In this document: positions 1 through 10,480 of the stretch, piece by piece
How positions within the stretch are numbered: position 1 is the first letter of the stretch
How the letters are laid out: each line of letters begins with the position of its first letter
NCBI GenBank assembly: GCA_048884965.1
Contig: JBHLQH010000069.1
Coordinates: forward strand, 1-10,480
Length of the DNA stretch: 10,480 nt
Direction: 5' to 3'
Source of the DNA: Candidatus Thorarchaeota archaeon
GTDB taxonomy: Archaea > Asgardarchaeota > Thorarchaeia > Thorarchaeales > Thorarchaeaceae
The notes under the pieces: generated by a model
Seen by the model: only the letters and a program-made list of their open reading frames with translations
Databases searched by the model: none
What the model was told of the DNA's origin: nothing
Translations under genes and position numbers: made by a program

Positions 1-926
1 GGAACGCTTCATTACCAAGAACCGATACTATCATCATACAGTTCTACTCGACAGACACTGCACTTGCATCAGCTCTTACCTCAGGTGAGGTTGATGTTGC
101 ATATCGTCACTTGACACCCGCTCAAGTGAACACATTCAGGACCAATGCCAATTTCAAGGTCTGGGAGGGAGTAGGTGCATCCATCCAATACATGCTCTTC
201 CAGCAGACAATATATCCATACAATGAAACTTTGATCCGACAAGGCATTGCCGCAGCTTTGAATAGGACCAACATCGCATCAACAGTCTTCGAAGGCACAG
301 TTGATCCGCTCTACAGTATCATTCCCGCTGGAATGGCCTATCACAAGCCGTCATTTGAGATATATGGCGAGGCGAACTACACCTACACTCAGGAATGCTT
401 GGAAGTCTATGGCTATAATTCGACCAATAAATTGCAGGTACACCTATACTACGAGAGCTCTGGGCACTATCCGTCGAGTGAGGCACAAGCCACTGTGTAC
501 AAGAGCGATCTCGACGCGAGCGGTGTGATAACCGTCACACTCCATAGCTATGACTGGCCTACCTACAGACAACAGCGAAATGCTGGTACTATGGACATCT
601 TCATCTATGGATGGTATCCGGACTTCATTGATCCTGACAACTATGGCTTCTTGCCATTCGCATCATGGCTCAATCTAGGATACAATGAGACATATCCTGC
701 TGGTGGTGTCGCTCAGTATGATCTCTGGGTGGAAGGACGAAGTGCGCAGACAGACGCAGCCCGACAAGAGGCTTACTATGACTTGCAGGACTTGCAGGCT
801 GAGGAAGTATCTCTTATTCCACTCTGGCAAGGTCGCAACAACGCTGTGACAAACGCAGACATTGGTGGCATAATTCTGGACATCACAGTCAATTGGCGCC
901 ATTGGCTCCTCTATTGGAACCCATAG
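1..926 (+). CDS. dppA: ABC transporter substrate-binding protein, family 5 (DppA/OppA/NikA-like), 5'-truncated by the window edge
   Basis: The frame is open from base 3 (NASLPRTDTIIIQFYSTDTALASALTSGEVDVAYRHLTP...), so the TTG at 111 is not the real start. Family-5 motifs: ALTSGEVDVA, IRQGIAAALNR, SIIPAGM, GWYPDFIDPDNY, ARQEAYYDLQ..AEEVSLIPLW. First gene of the dppBCDF cluster; stop TAG 924-926. Confidence 0.92.
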   Translation, partial: NASLPRTDTIIIQFYSTDTALASALTSGEVDVAYRHLTPAQVNTFRTNANFKVWEGVGASIQYMLFQQTIYPYNETLIRQGIAAALNRTNIASTVFEGTVDPLYSIIPAGMAYHKPSFEIYGEANYTYTQECLEVYGYNSTNKLQVHLYYESSGHYPSSEAQATVYKSDLDASGVITVTLHSYDWPTYRQQRNAGTMDIFIYGWYPDFIDPDNYGFLPFASWLNLGYNETYPAGGVAQYDLWVEGRSAQTDAARQEAYYDLQDLQAEEVSLIPLWQGRNNAVTNADIGGIILDITVNWRHWLLYWNP

Positions 927-939
927 TCTATATCTTTCA

Positions 940-978
940 TGGTGCTGTTAGTCAAAACAGCACCAAACTCCTTTTTTT
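940..978 (+). terminator. Intra-operon hairpin plus T-tract downstream of the substrate-binding gene (partial terminator or mRNA 3' stabiliser)
   Basis: Perfect 10-bp stem TGGTGCTGTT (940-949) / AACAGCACCA (956-965), 6-nt loop, then AACTCC and T7 (972-978). Starts 13 nt after the stop codon. Confidence 0.75.
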
Positions 979-1077
979 CTGGCCTTCTTTGATATTTCTC
1001 AATTACTAACACACTTATCTTGTGATTGCATTGGAAAAATAGAGGAATTTGCACCATTCGGATGGATTTGAAACAAT

Positions 1078-1083
1078 GGAGGT
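1078..1083 (+). promoter_or_regulatory. Shine-Dalgarno site for dppB
   Basis: GGAGGT lies 9 nt upstream of the TTG start at 1093. Confidence 0.7.
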
Positions 1084-1092
1084 TCTAATCAT

Positions 1093-2103
1093 TTGTCGCT
1101 TAGGTCGTATATCGTGACTCGTGCCCTGCTTACTATTCCTATGATTATGGTATTACTTACGATAGTATTTCTGGTACTCAGAGTTATTCCAGGAGATCCT
1201 GCGCTTCTGCATTTTGAAAAGAATGTTGATCCAGATGTTCTTTATGCTTTCAAGGAACGCTTGGGATTGAATGTATCAGTACCGGAACAATACTTCAATT
1301 ATCTGGGAGGTCTACTGGTTGGGGACCTAGGCCTTTCAATGCAGGATTTCTCCCCTATTAGCACTCACATTGCAGACAGATTTCCAGCAACATTGGAACT
1401 CACCATCTATGCTATGCTATTCGCAGTGCTATTAGGAGTCGCACTTGGAGTAAAGTCATCAAAAAGCTATGACAAACCAGCTGATCATGGTATTCGTCTT
1501 TTTGGAATCATCACCTATGCAATTCCAGTATTCTTCTTGGGGATGATTCTACAATTCATATTCGGAATATGGCTTGGGATTCTTCCTGTCAATGGGCGAT
1601 ATGACCCTCATTTTGCTCTTCCAACTCGAATCACCGGAATGTACACAATAGATGCAATCCTTACTCTGAATCCAGTAGCATTCTTTGTTGCAGCACAATA
1701 CATCATCCTACCGTCTCTAACACTGGGCACCGTCCTTTGTGGGATATTTGTGCGGCTGACAAGGACAAACATGCTTGAAACCCTCCGAATGGACTTTGTC
1801 GTTGCAGCGGAGGCTAGAGGCCTCTCTGATGGAACTATAACCTATGGCTATGCACTGAAGAATGCCTTTCTTCCCATCATGACGATGATCGGATTGCAAT
1901 TTGCAGCTCTTTTAGCAGGTGCTGTTCTTACAGAAACAACATTCAATTGGTTGGGTTTGGGAACTTACTTGATAGATAGAATCAATCATCGTGATTATAC
2001 AGGAATTCAAGGCACCGTCGTCTTCTTTGGAATCCTTGTTAGTCTGGTAACACTGATCATGGACATTCTGTATGCCTACCTTGACCCTAGGATTAGATTG
2101 TAG
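1093..2103 (+). CDS. dppB: Peptide/nickel ABC transporter permease (DppB/OppB type)
   Basis: N-terminal YIVTRALLTIP...LRVIPGDPA, GDLGLS, RFPATLELT, EAA-like loop FVVAAEARGLS..ITYGYALKNAF, GAVLTETTFNWLGLG, and C-terminal DILYAYLDPRIR. TTG start with a GGAGGT RBS. Confidence 0.95.
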   Translation: MSLRSYIVTRALLTIPMIMVLLTIVFLVLRVIPGDPALLHFEKNVDPDVLYAFKERLGLNVSVPEQYFNYLGGLLVGDLGLSMQDFSPISTHIADRFPATLELTIYAMLFAVLLGVALGVKSSKSYDKPADHGIRLFGIITYAIPVFFLGMILQFIFGIWLGILPVNGRYDPHFALPTRITGMYTIDAILTLNPVAFFVAAQYIILPSLTLGTVLCGIFVRLTRTNMLETLRMDFVVAAEARGLSDGTITYGYALKNAFLPIMTMIGLQFAALLAGAVLTETTFNWLGLGTYLIDRINHRDYTGIQGTVVFFGILVSLVTLIMDILYAYLDPRIRL

Positions 2104-2114
2104 GATGTGATAAT

Positions 2115-3374
2115 ATGACTAAGGTACTAAGTGGTATATTTTACCAATTGGCTCCATCAAAGGACGAGCTGAAAGAATATTCCCGAAAGTGGTGGTTGGC
2201 TGTATTATCTCTGACTGCATTTACACTTCTAGTGGTTGCTAGCCTGATAGGGATGTCATTGGTTTCTCATAGTGGAGTGGGCATTTATGTAGTTCTTGGG
2301 ACGCTATGCATTGGAATTGGCATATTGTTCACTTCAGCATATCTGAGGACCCGCTATCAGAATACCGATCTTGTAACGAAGGGAAATATATTTCATTTCG
2401 CTTTGGTATTCCTAATCTTTGCCGTAATCTTCTTTCCATTTGGCTTCATAATCTATCCTTCCGATCCAATCGGTTTCGGGGTGATTGTGCTTGCAGGCGG
2501 CTTTATCCTATCTCTGCTTGTATTGATGGCCTATGAAGGGTATCCGCGGCTGAAGGAACGAGGCTCCCCTGGTGTGCTTACGACCTCTGGCCTGCTGATT
2601 GTATTGGCGTTAGTCTATATGACCGTCATATCTTATTGGATTGTTCCCTACAATCCATTCTCGATAAATATTGGAGGAATTAGAGAGCCTCCCAATCCGG
2701 ATTTCCCCTTAGGCACAACCTCGTTAGGTCAGGATATGCTGAGTAGAGTGGTCGCCGGTGGAGCAACAATGCTACAAGTCGCTGTCCTCTCAGTGATAGT
2801 CTGTTTCTTTGTAGGAGTTCCTTTGGGGTTGCTGTCATCATACAAAGGTGGTAACTTTGATCGCGGCATGGGCCTGATCATGGACAGCCTCTTTGCATTT
2901 CCAGGATTAGTACTTGCCATAGCGATTTCTGCAATGCTTGGTCCCAGAATCGTGAATATGGCGATCGCAATTGCAGTCGTCTATATCCCTTCATATTTCC
3001 GTATCATCAGAAGTCGGGTATTCACAGTGAAGGAATTGCCGTATGTTGAAGCAGCAATTATAATGGGCGCAAAAGATAGAGAGATTCTCCTGAGGTACAT
3101 CTTACCCAATGTACTGCCATCTGTCGTTGTAATCATGTCGATAAACTTCGCAGATGCTGTCTTGACCGCTGCTGGTCTCACGTTTGTAGGGCTAGGACTG
3201 CCAATCGATATCGCCGATTGGGGATGGGATTTGACCCTTGGCTTTGAGGTTATAATCGTCGGTTCATGGTGGGTGTCAGCATTCCCTGGACTGATGATCG
3301 TACTTCTGGCACTAGGCTTTACCTTGACTGGAGAAGGCTTGAACGAGATATTGACACCAAAGCTAAGGGAGTGA
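2115..3374 (+). CDS. dppC: Peptide/nickel ABC transporter permease (DppC/OppC type) with an N-terminal multi-TM extension
   Basis: PYNP...PP..DFPLGTTSLGQDMLSRVVAG, DSLFAFPGLVLAIA, EAA loop PYVEAAIIMGA..ILLRYILPN, LTFVGLG, WG..L, WWVSAFPGL, GEGLNEILTPK. About 150 extra residues precede the usual first helix. Confidence 0.93.
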   Translation: MTKVLSGIFYQLAPSKDELKEYSRKWWLAVLSLTAFTLLVVASLIGMSLVSHSGVGIYVVLGTLCIGIGILFTSAYLRTRYQNTDLVTKGNIFHFALVFLIFAVIFFPFGFIIYPSDPIGFGVIVLAGGFILSLLVLMAYEGYPRLKERGSPGVLTTSGLLIVLALVYMTVISYWIVPYNPFSINIGGIREPPNPDFPLGTTSLGQDMLSRVVAGGATMLQVAVLSVIVCFFVGVPLGLLSSYKGGNFDRGMGLIMDSLFAFPGLVLAIAISAMLGPRIVNMAIAIAVVYIPSYFRIIRSRVFTVKELPYVEAAIIMGAKDREILLRYILPNVLPSVVVIMSINFADAVLTAAGLTFVGLGLPIDIADWGWDLTLGFEVIIVGSWWVSAFPGLMIVLLALGFTLTGEGLNEILTPKLRE

Positions 3375-3380
3375 AGCAGT

Positions 3381-4391
3381 ATGGTTGATGTCCTAAGAAT
3401 AAAAGAATTGGTTGTTGAATACACGACTAGGAGAGGCATAGCTCGTGCAGTTGACCGAGTCAGTCTGAATCTACGAGAGAACAGAACATTGGGGCTTGCA
3501 GGTGAATCCGGTTGCGGCAAATCAACTCTGGGTCGTTCCATCATGCAGCTCGTTCCATATCCGGGCCGTGTGGTTAGCGGTGAAATCCATCTCAATATCG
3601 ATCACGATGTGCCATGGAAAAAAGGGATTATCAAAGAAGGTGATGTTCCTATCCTGGAGTTGAATGGTGAGCAAATGCGTGCGATTAGGGGAAGTAAGAT
3701 TGCCTATATCTTCCAGGATCCAATGACCTCTCTTAATCCTATGCTAAGCATCGGGGATCACTTCATTCAGATTCAACACGCTCATGATCCCGAGATAAGT
3801 GATGAGGACGCCTTGGTGCGCGCGGAGGAAGTCCTTGAGCGTTTAGGGCTTCTAGCAGAGCGTGTGAATGACTATCCTCACCAGTTTAGTGGTGGGATGC
3901 GTCAACGGGTCATGATTGGCCTGGCGCTAGTAATGAGACCGCGTCTACTCATCTCTGATGAGCCGACCACATCACTCGATGTCATTGTCGAGGCACAGAT
4001 CCTTGAGGAAATGGCTGAACTAAAAGATCTGTTCAATTTGACTATGATCCTCATCACACATAATCTGGGTGTCTTAGCCCAGACTGCTGATGATGTTGCT
4101 ATAATGTATACAGGGAAACTTGCAGAGTTGGCAGACACAGAAACGCTGTTTGAGAATCCGCAACACCCCTATACTCAAGCTCTTCTTCAATCCGTTCCCG
4201 ATGTGACGAAACCGGAGAAGAAATTGACATGGATTCCTGGCGCACCTCCTGACTTAGTGCATCCATTACCAGGATGTATGTTTCACCCCCGCTGTCCATT
4301 TGCTATGGACATATGTAGGGAGGAGGAACCAGAGCTCCTCGAAAGCCCCTCTGGGGGAGTAGTAGCCTGTCATCTCTACGGGAGGCAATGA
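3381..4391 (+). CDS. dppD: Peptide ABC transporter ATP-binding protein (DppD/OppD type)
   Basis: Walker A GESGCGKS, Q-loop IFQDPMTSLNP, signature FSGGMRQR, Walker B LLISDEPTTSLD, H-loop ITHN, HPYT, and C-terminal GCMFHPRC..C...VACH. RBS-like GGGAGTGA overlaps the dppC stop. Confidence 0.96.
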   Translation: MVDVLRIKELVVEYTTRRGIARAVDRVSLNLRENRTLGLAGESGCGKSTLGRSIMQLVPYPGRVVSGEIHLNIDHDVPWKKGIIKEGDVPILELNGEQMRAIRGSKIAYIFQDPMTSLNPMLSIGDHFIQIQHAHDPEISDEDALVRAEEVLERLGLLAERVNDYPHQFSGGMRQRVMIGLALVMRPRLLISDEPTTSLDVIVEAQILEEMAELKDLFNLTMILITHNLGVLAQTADDVAIMYTGKLAELADTETLFENPQHPYTQALLQSVPDVTKPEKKLTWIPGAPPDLVHPLPGCMFHPRCPFAMDICREEEPELLESPSGGVVACHLYGRQ

Positions 4392-4392
4392 A

Positions 4393-5376
4393 ATGAAGTT
4401 ACTAGAAATCAAGGGAGTGAGGAAATACTTCCCAGTACAAAAAGGATTCATTGAGCAATTAGTAACACGGGAGAAGACCTTTGTCAAAGCAGTTGATGGT
4501 GTTTCCTTTGATATCATGAAAGGCGAAGTCCTCGGTCTTGCAGGTGAGAGTGGTTCCGGAAAGACGACAATGGGTAGGCTATGTGTGCGACTCATTGCAC
4601 CGACTGAGGGTGAGATCAACTTCGACGGTAAGGATATTGCGAAACTAAAGGGCCTTGAGATGCGAAAGATACGCCAACGCATTCAGTTCACATTCCAGGA
4701 CCCATCTTCGTCACTCAATCCACGGTTATCCATCGGTGATGCTATTGCACATGCCCTAAAATTCCAAGGGATTGGAACTCCTGAAGAGAGAAAAGAACGA
4801 GCTGAGAATGTTCTGGAACGAGTTGGTCTCTCTCCAGCAGTATCTTTCTATGATCGGAAGCCGCATCAACTTTCGGGAGGGCAAAAGCAGCGAGTCGTCT
4901 TTGGAAGAGCAATCATCCTGAATCCCGAGTTTGTGGTGACCGATGAGCCCGTTGCAATGGTAGACGTGTCCATTAAGGCACAGCTTCTGGAACTCATGCT
5001 TGACCTCAAGAAGGAGCTCAATCTAACCTACCTCTTCATCTCTCATGATCTTGCTACGGCACGATATGTCTGTGATCGCATCGCTATCATGTATTTGGGC
5101 AAACTCATCGAGATTGGTGACAAGGACCAGATCTATGAGGAGCCATTGCATCCTTACACAGAAGGTCTCATCAGCGCAATACCGGTTCCTGACCCCACTG
5201 TGAAGAAGGCTGAGAAGATTCCACGAGGGGAGATTCCAAGTCCAATCAATCCTCCCTCTGGCTGCCGTTTTCACCCACGTTGCCCTAAGGCATTCGAAAG
5301 ATGCCCTATAGAAGAACCTGAGCTGGCAAGTACCGGCGATGGAAGATATGTAGCATGTCATCTCTACACTAACTAG
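4393..5376 (+). CDS. dppF: Peptide ABC transporter ATP-binding protein (DppF/OppF type)
   Basis: KAVDGVSF, Walker A GESGSGKT, FQDPSSSLNPR, LSGGQKQR, DEPVAMVD, ISHDL, HPYT, GCRFHPRC...VACH. Starts 1 nt after the dppD stop. Confidence 0.96.
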   Translation: MKLLEIKGVRKYFPVQKGFIEQLVTREKTFVKAVDGVSFDIMKGEVLGLAGESGSGKTTMGRLCVRLIAPTEGEINFDGKDIAKLKGLEMRKIRQRIQFTFQDPSSSLNPRLSIGDAIAHALKFQGIGTPEERKERAENVLERVGLSPAVSFYDRKPHQLSGGQKQRVVFGRAIILNPEFVVTDEPVAMVDVSIKAQLLELMLDLKKELNLTYLFISHDLATARYVCDRIAIMYLGKLIEIGDKDQIYEEPLHPYTEGLISAIPVPDPTVKKAEKIPRGEIPSPINPPSGCRFHPRCPKAFERCPIEEPELASTGDGRYVACHLYTN

Positions 5377-5469: not shown

Positions 5470-6021
5470 ATGAAGCATGCCAAGAAGATTGTTCTCTCCA
5501 CTGTAGGCGTTTCACTTCTTGTTATGTTTCTCCTCTCCCTGACCATCCTGCCCAGCGATGCCGCTGCTATCTTAGACACTCCTCGTTCTGCTGCGGCGAA
5601 TGTCGGAAACTCGTTTTCAGTAGATGCTATGGGAGAGGCTCTCTATCTCAATGACACAGATAGTATCAGGGCACTAACTAATATGCACATCGAGTTCACT
5701 ATAGTTCGAAATGGTTCTAGAGGTGTCATCTTTTTGGTTTCGTCTGGTTCATTCGTGATGAACTATACGAGGTTTTCTGTGAACGATGGAGTAGGCTATG
5801 CTGGAAGACCTCAATCGGATTCCTATAATCGAACGCTGGTATTTGGGTTTAGGCTCAATCTGACTGACGATGATGGTATACCACTTCAGTTGTCTTTCAG
5901 AGGATTTGTGGACCGATCTGAGGGTTTCAGACCCGTGCTATTCATGCACGGTAGAATTACATTCGAAAATCTACAATACTATCTGGTACAGCGTGGTACA
6001 ATTCATCGTATCGAATCATGA
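5470..6021 (+). CDS. Hypothetical secreted or membrane-tethered protein, beta-rich
   Basis: 183-aa ORF filling the gap between operons. Basic n-region (MKHAKK), hydrophobic h-region and SDAAA cleavage-like site. Alternating hydrophobic strands and five N-x-S/T sequons. No family recognised. Confidence 0.8.
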   Translation: MKHAKKIVLSTVGVSLLVMFLLSLTILPSDAAAILDTPRSAAANVGNSFSVDAMGEALYLNDTDSIRALTNMHIEFTIVRNGSRGVIFLVSSGSFVMNYTRFSVNDGVGYAGRPQSDSYNRTLVFGFRLNLTDDDGIPLQLSFRGFVDRSEGFRPVLFMHGRITFENLQYYLVQRGTIHRIES

Positions 6022-6117: not shown

Positions 6118-8724
6118 CTAATCTTTCTCTTCGAGGATAGCCTCGACCTTCGATAGTCTATCCTTTAGGTCCCTGTTCTCCTTCTCAAGGTCCTCAACAG
6201 ACTTCTGGAGGGATTTTACATCAGTGGAGTCTTTCTTTTTGCTCAGCGCACGTATCGCTACTCTTGCAAGTCTAATAATGTCTGAATCAACATGTCCTTC
6301 AGCAAGCTTCTGTAGTGACGGTATCAATTCGGCTGAACCATATCCTCTGGCAGCATTTATTGCGGCTATCTGAACCTTGTATGACCTATCATGAAGTAGA
6401 CCTTCAATGATGTCCTTGACGGCAGGATGCTTCTTCTTGTACTTCCTGCCAAGATCTGCAAGCAATACTGGAGCTGTTCTTCGTAGATAGTCATCATGTC
6501 CGGGTTTCGTGTACTCGGAGATGACTGGAATCGCCTCGGCCTTCTGGGTTTCTTTTAGACCACTGAGATACCCTCTTCGGACGATCTCGGTCCAGCTATC
6601 AGGTGCACCCTTGATACCTTTCTCGAGAATATCAAACGATCTCCTATGTCGTAGTTTCCCTATCGATGTGGCTGCAGATGCCACGACGAAATAGGATTCC
6701 TCATCCTTCAGGAGGATTTGCAGAGCTTCCAATGCCCTCTCATTTTGGTAGTAGTTGCCCAAAGCTCCTGCCACATCAGTTCGAGCCCTGCTATCCTTGA
6801 GATTACAGCCTCTTAGAAGCTGAGTAAGGGCTGACTCGTTCTTAATCTTTCCAAGGACCTTTGCAACCTCTGTTTGCACTCCCCAGAAAGGCTCTGTTAT
6901 CAATGCCTTGCCTAGCGCTTCGAGAGACCTCGGGTTGGCCTTCTTGCCAAGTGCCTGTGCAGCCTTGATTCTTTGCATAACCGTTCGACCTTTGTGCAGC
7001 TGCTCAATCCACATTGGTTCAGGTTTTATGATATCCCAATCCATCAAGACTGCATAGTCAGGGTCGATCAACATCTGCTTTGGCTTCTTGTGAACCGGAT
7101 AGTAGAAGCTGTGTATCCGCTCATTTACTTGCATCGTATAGCGGGTGCTCTCTCCCGATTCATCTACAAACTCCACAGTTAGAGGGAACTTGAATACTCC
7201 AGGCGTCATCCCATCATCATGTTTCTGTGTCTGTTCGACCTTCACTAGGGCATGACCCATCTTCTCGTCATGAGAGCAGGTAATCCTGCATTCGGGATAC
7301 CCGGCTTTATAGAGCCACTGTTCAAAGAACCAACCATAGTCCTCACCGGTCATTTCTGTGAAAAGAGATTCCAGATCATGAGTATACGGTGACTTATGGG
7401 CGAATCTCTTCATCCATTCACCTAGTATCTTCCACCACCGTTCTTCTCCGACAAGGTGCTTGAGCATATAATAGCGCCACGCGGCTCCGGGGTAGAGGTG
7501 CCTGTCGAACATATCGGAGCCCCGCTCCCATTCGTTCTGTACGATAGGACGTCTGTACTGATTCTTGTCCTCGTCAAAATACGATGTCTGCTTCCCATAC
7601 TGCTCATAGAGATATTCGTCGAAGCCCTTGTCATGGAGCTTCCACTCATTCTGCATCTGGGTTCCCCATCCCTCGTTGAGCCAACCATGCGACCAAGTTC
7701 GACAAGTAACTAGGTCCCCACCCCACATGTGAGCAAGCTCATGAGCGACAAGACCATCGGATTGATAGTCCTTGTGAGTCTTCTCATCGTGTAGAGTAAT
7801 ATCTGTCTGAGTGGTCGCACTTGTATTCTCCATGCCTCCAATGACGAAGTTGGCCGCTGTAATCTGCGCATATTTGGCCCATGGGTACTTAACTCCAAGC
7901 TTCTCCTCGAAGAACTTGATCATCTCGGGAGTTTTCCCAAAGGAACGATAGACCGTTTCCTTGTCCCACCGTTTATGTGCGTAGTAGCTCACCTCAAGGC
8001 CATTCATATCCTCCTTGTATTCCACATACTCTGATGCCGCCATAGTCATCAGATATGCGGTTATTGGAAGCTCTTGCACCCAATGGAAGGTCTCTGTTCC
8101 GTCCTCGTTCTTCTTCCGCTCCTTCAAGTATCCATTGCTCATAGCGAAGTAGCCTTCAGGTACAGTAAGGATGGTTTCTGTAGGGAACTTATGACTTGGA
8201 TTATCATAGATGGGCACACACGCTCTGCAGCAATCATCCTGCATCTGTGTCCAGAAAGAGCTCTCGATATTGGGAAACTCGGGTGTTTTATTCGTGAACC
8301 ATAGCCCCACTCGTGGTCTCTCAATCGTATAGGCGAAGGTAAGCTCCTCCTCATTGCCTTCCTCGAGAACCTTTGATAGATACACCATCATGCTCTCAGA
8401 ATCAGGCTGGATATCGAACTCGAGTTCCTCTCCTGAGGAGTCTGTAATCCCTGAGATGTTTAGGTCGAGGACGTGCAGGAACACCTTTGATAGACTTGGC
8501 ACTATGGAAGTGAGTCTAATCTTTGATATCGCATCTACCCGCTCATTGACAATATCAACATTCCAATCCACTATCAAGAGGTCAATGTTATAATGACGCG
8601 GAGGCGTCCATTGTGGTCTTGCTGTAGGAAAAGTGAACGATTCTCTTTCCGCGGCGAAAACGCTCTTCTGTTCTACTGAGTCGCCCCGCATCAGAGAGTC
8701 TAGATAATCATGAAAGTCTGTCAT
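6118..8724 (-). CDS. pepN: M1 family zinc aminopeptidase (PepN-like) with C-terminal HEAT repeats and coiled coil
   Basis: GGMEN exopeptidase motif (7825-7839), HELAH-x18-E zinc motif (HELAH at 7729-7743, E in WLNEG), catalytic Tyr in HLY (7492-7494), WFFEQWLYKAGYP, then HEAT-like repeats (RIKAAQALGK, VQTEVAKVLGK, ARTDVAGALG, VVASAATSIGK). Start placed at ATG 8724 (868 aa) because GAAGGT precedes it; the TTG at 8766 is less likely. Confidence 0.93.
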   Translation of the reverse strand: MTDFHDYLDSLMRGDSVEQKSVFAAERESFTFPTARPQWTPPRHYNIDLLIVDWNVDIVNERVDAISKIRLTSIVPSLSKVFLHVLDLNISGITDSSGEELEFDIQPDSESMMVYLSKVLEEGNEEELTFAYTIERPRVGLWFTNKTPEFPNIESSFWTQMQDDCCRACVPIYDNPSHKFPTETILTVPEGYFAMSNGYLKERKKNEDGTETFHWVQELPITAYLMTMAASEYVEYKEDMNGLEVSYYAHKRWDKETVYRSFGKTPEMIKFFEEKLGVKYPWAKYAQITAANFVIGGMENTSATTQTDITLHDEKTHKDYQSDGLVAHELAHMWGGDLVTCRTWSHGWLNEGWGTQMQNEWKLHDKGFDEYLYEQYGKQTSYFDEDKNQYRRPIVQNEWERGSDMFDRHLYPGAAWRYYMLKHLVGEERWWKILGEWMKRFAHKSPYTHDLESLFTEMTGEDYGWFFEQWLYKAGYPECRITCSHDEKMGHALVKVEQTQKHDDGMTPGVFKFPLTVEFVDESGESTRYTMQVNERIHSFYYPVHKKPKQMLIDPDYAVLMDWDIIKPEPMWIEQLHKGRTVMQRIKAAQALGKKANPRSLEALGKALITEPFWGVQTEVAKVLGKIKNESALTQLLRGCNLKDSRARTDVAGALGNYYQNERALEALQILLKDEESYFVVASAATSIGKLRHRRSFDILEKGIKGAPDSWTEIVRRGYLSGLKETQKAEAIPVISEYTKPGHDDYLRRTAPVLLADLGRKYKKKHPAVKDIIEGLLHDRSYKVQIAAINAARGYGSAELIPSLQKLAEGHVDSDIIRLARVAIRALSKKKDSTDVKSLQKSVEDLEKENRDLKDRLSKVEAILEEKD

Positions 8725-8859
8725 TGGAGAATTACCTTCTTTTTTGTACACTGAAAATGCTATCAAGCATTAGATGAGTGTTCCCGTTGGACCAATTCGA
8801 AGAACCGGAAGTGATAGGTATCGGTTTGCACTTATTTATTCCTTAATGGGGCATGCAGA

Positions 8860-9654
8860 TTGATAGTGGACACTCATTGTCATCTTGAGATGTACGCGAA
8901 CAACACAGAGCAGGCACTATCTGATCTGAAGAAGAACGCAATCGTTGCGATTAGCCTATCCAACGGGATTCCCTCCTATGAACGAACGCTAGACATCGCA
9001 ACTAGATGTGAGATGGTTATCCCTGGCTTTGGCATTCATCCGCATAATGCTCCTGAGGTAATGGATCACTTGGATGTCATCCGAGAATATGCATACAAAT
9101 GCATCGTCCTCGGTGAGATAGGATTGGATCATTTCTTTGCAAAGGACTCTTCTACATATCCCCTCCAAGAGGAACTGCTCAAAGTATTCCTTGAAGTTGC
9201 GGAGAAGAATGATGCGATCCTCAGTATCCACAGTCGTGGTGCAGACCTCAAGGTCGCAGCGATATTAGATTCCTTTCACCTTTCACGTGTAGTCATTCAT
9301 GGCTTTGATCAAGGCATGGAGGTCGCGAATCAGCTGACTGATAGAGGCATCTATCTGTCGTTCGGTCCTCTTATCTCAGAAAGGTACTCTGATATCGTAC
9401 CCCAGTGGGATGATGTTCGTGAGGCTGCATCAAATGTCCCTGACGACCTCCTGCTTATGGAAAGCGATGCCCCTGGGTCATATACTGATGAGATGCCCTC
9501 GGAGAGGATATTCCAAGTTCTAAGCATTCTCTCTTCTCTTCGATTACAGCCTCCGCGAGATACTCAGGATCTCATGAATCGTAATTTTCTGAGATTGATT
9601 GCTGGCATTCCGCAGCTTGAGGGGCAGCGATCTCTAGTTCAATCAGACATGTAA
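8860..9654 (+). CDS. tatD: TatD family metal-dependent hydrolase/nuclease
   Basis: DTHCH, GIHP, LGEIGLD, SIHSR, VIHGF and LMESDAP motifs in the canonical order. The TTG start gives the typical MIVDTHCHL N-terminus. AT-rich TTATTTATT at 8832-8840 may be its TATA box. Confidence 0.93.
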   Translation: MIVDTHCHLEMYANNTEQALSDLKKNAIVAISLSNGIPSYERTLDIATRCEMVIPGFGIHPHNAPEVMDHLDVIREYAYKCIVLGEIGLDHFFAKDSSTYPLQEELLKVFLEVAEKNDAILSIHSRGADLKVAAILDSFHLSRVVIHGFDQGMEVANQLTDRGIYLSFGPLISERYSDIVPQWDDVREAASNVPDDLLLMESDAPGSYTDEMPSERIFQVLSILSSLRLQPPRDTQDLMNRNFLRLIAGIPQLEGQRSLVQSDM

Positions 9655-9782
9655 CAACGATTGTGCTTTCCAGTAAGCGCCAAATCACCTCAATTCTTTG
9701 AGAATTCATGAAATAGTCTGAAACGGCCACCTTCGAAGCGCTTATTAGCTAATTATTCAATTAAGTATGATTGTGTCCCTTG

Positions 9783-9796
9783 GAAAGGTTTTTATT
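9783..9796 (+). promoter_or_regulatory. Candidate BRE-TATA promoter of the rRNA transcription unit
   Basis: GAAAGG (BRE-like) is directly followed by TTTTTATT. The predicted start near 9815-9822 coincides with the 5' strand of the first leader helix. Confidence 0.6.
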
Positions 9797-9819
9797 CACT
9801 TTCTGTGGGGAACGGTTAC

Positions 9820-10114
9820 TTCGCATCCAACGGTGCTATGCTAGAGCTTCGGCGGTAGCCCTGCGATGACAGTTAATGGCTTCCAGATGCGAATACAAGA
9901 TGCGGACGTGAGATAGACTGACGCAAATGTGTCAGAGTCCCCTCAGGTCTAAGATATGCTCAACAGTGTGCAGGTATAATTGGGTAAGAACATCCCTTCT
10001 TTCCCCGTTTTAGCCTGTACTTCATTCAAGCGTTAAGTTTAGTGTGCTAAAGTTGTACGTGGTGACCGAATACTACTCCGGTCATACCTTGCTAAACATG
10101 TACAATTGTGATCA
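9820..10114 (+). other. 5' external transcribed spacer (pre-rRNA leader)
   Basis: No ORF in the track. Several helices: TTCGCATC 9820-9827 / GATGCGAA 9886-9893; CTGACGC/GTGTCAG 9918-9935; TGACCG/CGGTCA 10063-10084; GTTGTACGT 10052-10060 / ATGTACAAT 10098-10106. Confidence 0.6.
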
Positions 10115-10480
10115 ACTCTAGTTGATCCTGCTAGAGGACACTGCTATTGGCTTGGGGTTAAGACATGCAAGTTGAACGAGCACGCATCCGTGTTCGTGGC
10201 GAACGGCTCAGTAGTGTTGTTAACTTACCCTGTAGATGCGGACAACGCCGGGAAACTGGCGGTAATCCGCAATAGGAGCGATGTTCTGGAAATGATTTTG
10301 CTTCAAAATGGTGCCCCTAGGTATGTTGGGGTTTCTGCTACAGGATGGGACAGCACCGGATCATACTTGTAAGTGGGGTAAATGCCCACTTAGGTTGTGA
10401 CCCGAACGGGCGATGTAAGTCGTGGCCCGGAGAAGGCAACTGAGACAAGGTGCCTAGCCCCACGGGGTGCAGCAGTTACG
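10115..10480 (+). rRNA. rrs: 16S (SSU) rRNA, archaeal type, 5' domain only (runs off the window), strongly divergent
   Basis: Conserved landmarks in order: GTTGATCCTGC, CATGCAAGT, GAACGGCTCAGTA, GGGAAACT, CTGAGACA, ACGGGGTGCAGCAG. Helices h1 and h5-h14 can be folded by hand. Hand-counted GC is about 53% (193/366). The 5' end is approximate (+/-2 nt). Confidence 0.96.

Follow-up and report, generated by a model that had tools for sequence, protein, structure and literature searches.

The final 366 nt of the 10,480-nt stretch of DNA analyzed here (hereafter the window, which is the whole of contig C69) are very probably the 5' end of the 16S rRNA gene of a Thorarchaeota/Thorarchaeia MAG, a gene that is ordinary, functional and, as far as is visible, the only one of its kind there; its odd helices are fixed signatures of the lineage, and compensatory substitutions keep its universal SSU fold. 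By cmscan, positions 10115-10480 of the + strand match the Rfam archaeal SSU rRNA model (RF01959) at 252.7 bits (E-value 1.2e-71, gathering threshold 50 bits), and no other Rfam family reached its gathering score in the window. The 3' side of the gene is missing: the contig end at 10480, which corresponds to model position 343 and falls within the conserved ~340-360 primer region, is exactly the truncation point, and the identity of the gene is read from these 366 nt, the remaining three quarters lying beyond the contig end. The source MAG (99 contigs, 4.09 Mb, 95.7% complete, 7.2% contamination) is a Thorarchaeia (Asgard) genome. Other features of the window are listed in Table 1, including a 183-aa ORF that had no match in a Pfam search.

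Table 1. Coordinates of the features located in the window.
Feature	Positions	Strand	Basis or remarks
Opp/Dpp-type ABC transporter operon	3-5376		
183-aa ORF	5470-6021		flanked by the ABC transporter operon and the M1 peptidase gene
M1 aminopeptidase with HEAT repeats	6118-8766	-	Pfam; divergent, conserved neighbor of Thorarchaeia 16S
tatD-family hydrolase gene	8860-9654	+	PF01026, 1.5e-41; directly upstream of the leader
BRE/TATA-like box, GGAAAG + TTTTTATT	9783-9796	+	first block of conservation ahead of the 16S
Structured pre-16S leader (5' external spacer)	9821-10114	+	alignment of 40 leaders; RNA contig exact over 9790-10142
16S rRNA gene, 5' portion (366 nt)	10115-10480	+	cmscan RF01959, model 1-343 of 1478
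Helix 1	10118-10134	+	CUAGU 10118-10122 / GCUAG 10130-10134, loop UGAUCCU
GAC, 5' strand of long-range helix	10162-10164	+	partner GUU 10475-10477
GUGUUGUU, helix 5' strand	10214-10221	+	partner GACAGCAC 10349-10356
Extended helix 10	10310-10336	+	G10310.U10336, G10311-C10335, CCCC 10314-10317 with GGGG 10328-10331; loop AGGUAUGU conserved
GACAGCAC, helix 3' strand	10349-10356	+	partner 10214-10221
GUU, 3' strand of long-range helix	10475-10477	+	within GCAGCAGUUACG, a variant of the ~349 primer region

When the Rfam consensus structure was mapped onto the window, 98 pairs closed within the fragment, and 94 of these are G-C, A-U or G-U, i.e., the fragment has the same fold as the model. The unusual helices pointed out in an earlier, sequence-only reading of this DNA were all recovered: helix 1 forms with two pairs altered on both strands relative to the CcGgu/gcCgG consensus, the covariance model pairs GAC with GUU (10162/10477 G.U, 10163/10476 A-U, 10164/10475 C-G), all eight pairs of the GUGUUGUU/GACAGCAC helix are standard, and UAAGUGGG/CCCACUUA, the GUAA tetraloop, GGCA/UGCC and the CACG loop are likewise present. 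The differences from the model lie in its lower match (~0.74 bits per model position; an Odinarchaeia 16S reaches ~1.0), in the double substitutions of the primer-site helices and in a helix 10 that is ~20 nt longer. The Rfam model counts ~20 bases of this extension (10312-10334) as an insertion; among Thorarchaeia, double changes occur at all five of its pairs and 92% of the alignment cells are paired.

To what extent these substitutions are compensated can be read from an alignment that combines the window with 35 further Thorarchaeia 5' domains, all distinct and sharing 79-92% identity with it. Across these 36 sequences, 95.6% of cells are paired, compared with 35-45% when the partners are slid by 1-3 columns, double-sided changes affect 43 of the 98 pairs (7-19 in the slid controls), and the covariation score is 0.185 (0.033-0.042 in the slid controls). 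The data thus support the view of compensated substitutions shaped by selection on a functioning rRNA, as the preserved pairing had suggested in the first place. The four non-standard pairs of the window (10245/10262 A.G, 10282/10297 U.U, 10362/10401 C.C and 10439/10450 A.G) depart from the standard in 29-36 of the 36 sequences as well, which identifies them as features of the lineage rather than private lesions. Among the motifs noted earlier, the only window-specific oddity is a pair of C-G to U-A double changes in the helix 10214-10221/10349-10356, where the Thorarchaeia consensus is GUGUCGCU/GGCGGCAC.

Helix 1, the GAC/GUU helix, UAAGUGGG/CCCACUUA, GUAA and CACG are invariant or nearly so among the 36 Thorarchaeia sequences, the GAC/GUU helix in 36 of 36. 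The same count for helix 1 is no fair test, most rows of the alignment having been selected by the helix-1 word itself, and the relevant observation is that helix 1 is invariant in 11 loci of relatives fetched by similarity. Searched exactly among 185,579 species representatives, the helix-1 word TCTAGTTGATCCTGCTAGA occurs at 58 loci, 33 of which are titled Candidatus Thorarchaeota, the others belonging to untitled archaeal MAGs, MAGs labelled Promethearchaeota or Hermodarchaeota, Woese- or Nanoarchaeota, and bins labelled Bacteroidetes or Gammaproteobacteria. About 45 species representatives share the 5' domain of the window, and no GTDB species representative is more than 92% identical to the window over these 366 nt of 16S. 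A homologue is found in 21 of 24 same-family genomes picked by genome taxonomy (77-92% identity), and the similarity is graded, with 80-92% identity within the genus and 77-90% within the family vs. 63-69% to other Asgard classes. By marker-gene taxonomy, the genomes with the closest 16S matches are of the same genus. The concordance between 16S similarity and genome taxonomy is imperfect, since one "same genus" relative (G006) is just 80% identical; its 16S, on a contig of 4.2 kb, may have been mis-binned.

The proposal that the lineage as a whole carries a divergent SSU thus stands, with the motifs fixed across Thorarchaeia, while the long branch proved only moderate and the label "highly divergent" too strong. 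Identity of the 5' domain between Thorarchaeia and four other Asgard lineages is 63-69%, and those lineages are themselves only 68-81% identical to each other. On a full-length maximum-likelihood tree the stem leading to the family is moderately long, another Asgard lineage (G028) having a longer branch, and full-length Thorarchaeia genes score 1191-1350 bits against RF01959 vs. 1293-1530 for other Asgards. A CUAG/CUAG helix 1 is also shared with a sister family and with an Odinarchaeia genome. One of the phylum-level relatives is a single-contig assembly, which we take to be the closed Odinarchaeum genome. These relatives also include the Atabeyarchaeia genome of PMC11291895. Judged from these sequence comparisons, "somewhat long-branched" is a fair description and "highly divergent" an overstatement.

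The 5' terminus has, moreover, been described before. Reads of rRNA with the Arch21F site C==TA===========TA== were found in sediment metatranscriptomes (Zhang et al., 2020, BMC Microbiol, PMC6998087), and primers built from those reads yielded full-length sequences that were assigned to Thorarchaeota as "Type A" (PMC6998087). Positions 10116-10135 of the window (CTCTAGTTGATCCTGCTAGA) display the mismatch pattern given for "Type A" in Table 2 of that study, identically, so that the window differs from the published type as another species would and not in kind. The sequence therefore belongs to a described lineage and its helix-1 variant is published, which removes the suggestion of novelty: in kind and in detail, this is an ordinary, already known Thorarchaeia 16S type. 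The ~349 primer region of the window also deviates from the archaeal consensus. Thorarchaeia account for 0 of 4499 Asgard sequences in SILVA, an absence ascribed to primer bias (PMC13617573), and divergence at primer sites explains why the lineage is nearly missing from amplicon databases though common in metagenomes. As a practical reminder, Thorarchaeia escape Arch21F-type primers, and a sequence such as this one, taken without context, seems "highly divergent" though it is not; it carries little weight as a discovery.

Contig ends bearing rRNA are typical sites of misassembly, the contamination estimate of the MAG is 7.2%, and a published Thorarchaeia MAG carries a foreign 16S (PMC13617573), so that one may ask whether, through a chimeric join or mis-binning, the 16S end comes from one organism and the flanking genes or the rest of the MAG from another. 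The genomic context speaks against a join upstream of 10115, which the sequence-only reading had raised as a possibility. Orthologues of the M1 peptidase (60-82% amino-acid identity) adjoin the 16S start in ~30 other Thorarchaeia genomes, with tatD between the two in some. Six further genomes have tatD at a distance of ~400-470 nt upstream of the 16S, and in one locus (L060) the M1 gene follows on the far side of tatD, reproducing the gene order of the window; the leader is part of the same conserved neighborhood. Furthermore, Logan DNA contigs from two runs, which may include the source sample, cover 8800-10134, 8800-9967 and 9965-10139, none of them with more than one difference, and tatD is thereby bridged to the 16S start. 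The nearest 16S matches being from genomes of the same genus (by marker-gene taxonomy), mis-binning is not favored either, and we regard a chimeric or mis-binned contig as highly unlikely.

The contig is most likely interrupted at model position 343 because the sequence downstream would be common to co-occurring Thorarchaeia, at which point the assembly graph breaks. DNA contigs (Logan) from the runs matching the window also fragment within the 16S gene, as would fit a break of the graph where relatives co-occur. MAG contigs that break inside rRNA genes should not be taken as gene fragments.

This bears on whether the locus could be a 16S pseudogene undergoing decay or an orphan fragment of the gene, as might be thought from the presence of just the first 366 nt. 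The truncation coincides with the contig end, and within the 366 nt we found no uncompensated lesion private to the window: 94 of the 98 pairs are intact, the four exceptions are lineage-wide, and the promoter-like box and leader are conserved. The gene is also represented in environmental RNA. Metatranscriptome contigs from a different study match the window with 0 differences over 9790-10142, 10118-10268, 10240-10381, 10353-10426 and 10408-10480; the first spans the leader and the 16S start, and the last runs 18 nt beyond the contig end. In sediment metatranscriptomes such identical RNA contigs reach a high word depth, contigs of this kind giving neither transcript ends nor transcript levels. 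The presence of exact RNA, variable regions included, speaks against a dead gene, and none of the marks of an rRNA pseudogene (lesions, promoter loss, lack of expression) was seen, which makes this explanation hardly credible.

At position 10397 the window has a G, and in two metatranscriptomes an A carries most of the rRNA word depth. The position is unpaired and the Thorarchaeia consensus has an A there, so that related, more abundant Thorarchaeia co-occur.

Divergent rRNA operons within a single genome are known from Haloarcula marismortui (rrnB) and from Plasmodium (A- and S-type rRNAs). These are functional, structurally compensated variants and a precedent for the idea, put forward in the sequence-only reading, that the window holds a divergent second rRNA type coexisting with a conventional 16S in the same cell, in heterogeneous or specialized ribosomes. 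Compensated changes would indeed suit a functional paralogue, and in an incomplete MAG (95.7%) a conventional copy might have been missed, as rRNA genes often are by binning. Such systems, however, need at least two types per genome, and the MAG and its relatives show one. We searched the MAG by blastn with six full-length 16S genes of relatives (a profile search with RF01959 misses the truncated gene), and the 4.09 Mb contained no second 16S piece, the only match being 10115-10480. All relatives in which the full gene is assembled carry a single complete 16S (model 1-1478, 1191-1350 bits, ending in AUCACCUCCU), and in each case it is of the window type; hence no genome with at least two SSU types was found, among what are incomplete MAGs. 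Adding that the signature is fixed over ~45 species and that published Thorarchaeota 16S sequences obtained from rRNA itself share this 5' end (PMC6998087), we consider a second rRNA type extremely improbable and retain the view of a single, ordinary 16S gene.

Separately, we considered the Thorarchaeota MAG CP070761.1, labelled "chromosome", as a closed-genome control for copy number. It was rejected because its rRNA locus is partial and split: only 16S positions 1-123 and 1397-1493 are present, ~200 kb apart (L073 and L074, at 1,854,808 and 1,651,227), and the locus looks misassembled or scaffolded.

Upstream of the gene, the block CTTGGAAAG(C/G)TTTTTATT (9779-9796 in the window) is kept in nearly all of 40 Thorarchaeia leaders, a conservation from which we infer a BRE/TATA promoter. 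The 16S would then be transcribed from this conserved promoter-like element, ~320 nt upstream, by way of a conserved structured leader. No RNA contigs upstream of 9790 were found in runs X4 and X5, contigs being unable to mark a transcript start.

For the 40 leaders, RNAalifold predicted 49 pairs, 30 of them with double changes, arranged in three domains (9821-9892, 9904-9950 and 10053-10105). The first of these is closed by UCGCAUC/GAUGCGA and contains a kink-turn-like motif in the "box D before box C" order, with GA at 9844-9845 and 9868-9869, a C-stem formed by GC 9846-9847 and GC 9863-9864, and a 3-nt bulge (GAU 9865-9867). The GA and AUGA elements are invariant in all 40 leaders, a flanking C-G pair being changed to U-A in the window, and this domain may represent a putative binding site of L7Ae. 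The two other domains are covarying hairpins, GGAC.UGAG/CUCA.GUCU around CUGACGC/GUGUCAG (9904-9950) and UUGUACGUG/CAUGUACAA around GACCG/CGGUC (10053-10105). A box C/D sRNA had been considered over GCGATGAC...CTGACGC (9864-9925) and was rejected, CUGACGC being the 5' strand of the covarying hairpin 9918-9924/9929-9935.

At the junction with the gene, GAUCAAC (10110-10116, the leader end plus the first two 16S bases) is perfectly complementary to GUUGAUC in the helix-1 loop (10121-10127), which makes an alternative pairing that competes with helix 1 possible; GACCA in about half of the relatives breaks one of these pairs, and the pairing is without covariation support. One could go further and speculate that the leader (9821-10114) is more than a passive spacer and acts in cis as an assembly element specific to the lineage. 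An L7Ae-type kink-turn in its first domain and masking of the helix-1 loop would then together chaperone the folding of a stand-alone pre-16S, which several introns interrupt in relatives, a role resembling that of the U3 snoRNP of eukaryotes. This idea, drawn from conservation and covariation, we hold to be rather doubtful.

A more conventional function is suggested for the middle of the leader, where the blocks GCUCAACAG (9958-9966), GGGUAAG (9982-9988), CCCCG (10004-10008) and GCCUGUAC (10014-10021) are matched, in nested order, by complementary stretches of the 3' trailer in two relatives (L003:3024-3366 and L011:3033-3366). One such complement, CUG(C/U)UGAGC, is found in six genomes with trailer sequence, 129-141 nt beyond the 16S gene. 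By analogy with these relatives (the window has no trailer), the leader would pair with the 3' trailer to give the usual archaeal processing stem.

Work by Brewer et al. from 2020, as cited in PMC12918454, is said to have dealt with unlinked ("orphan") rRNA genes of Archaea. Three relatives (L083, L084 and L085) are alike in this respect: no 23S rRNA or other Rfam family was found within 8 kb downstream of their 16S, which is thus unlinked there. The window contig ends inside the gene, and no match to LSU rRNA was found in its MAG.

Finally, the 16S genes of Thorarchaeia vary in length, measuring ~1500 nt plus multiples of ~30 nt (1532, 1562, 1593, 1595 and 1653), with lengthened examples, all outside the window, at L018:4328-5920, L036:2207-3859, L054 and L072. 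The extra length consists of hairpin inserts of 29-33 nt at nine sites in conserved core regions, and inserts of 616-849 nt also occur in relatives, at positions 874 and 940. A permissive scan for bulge-helix-bulge (BHB) motifs was uninformative (~10 matches per shuffled gene), and was replaced by a strict test at the inserts that the alignment defines, with a 4-bp helix, two 3-nt bulges and a cut after the second bulge base. In 15 of 25 inserts, the strict motif excises to exactly the uninterrupted sequence. No description of rRNA introns in Thorarchaeota was found in the literature searched, the coverage of which was limited; the inserts are BHB mini-introns of a kind like the "HP" class introns of Thermoproteales (PMC4496867).
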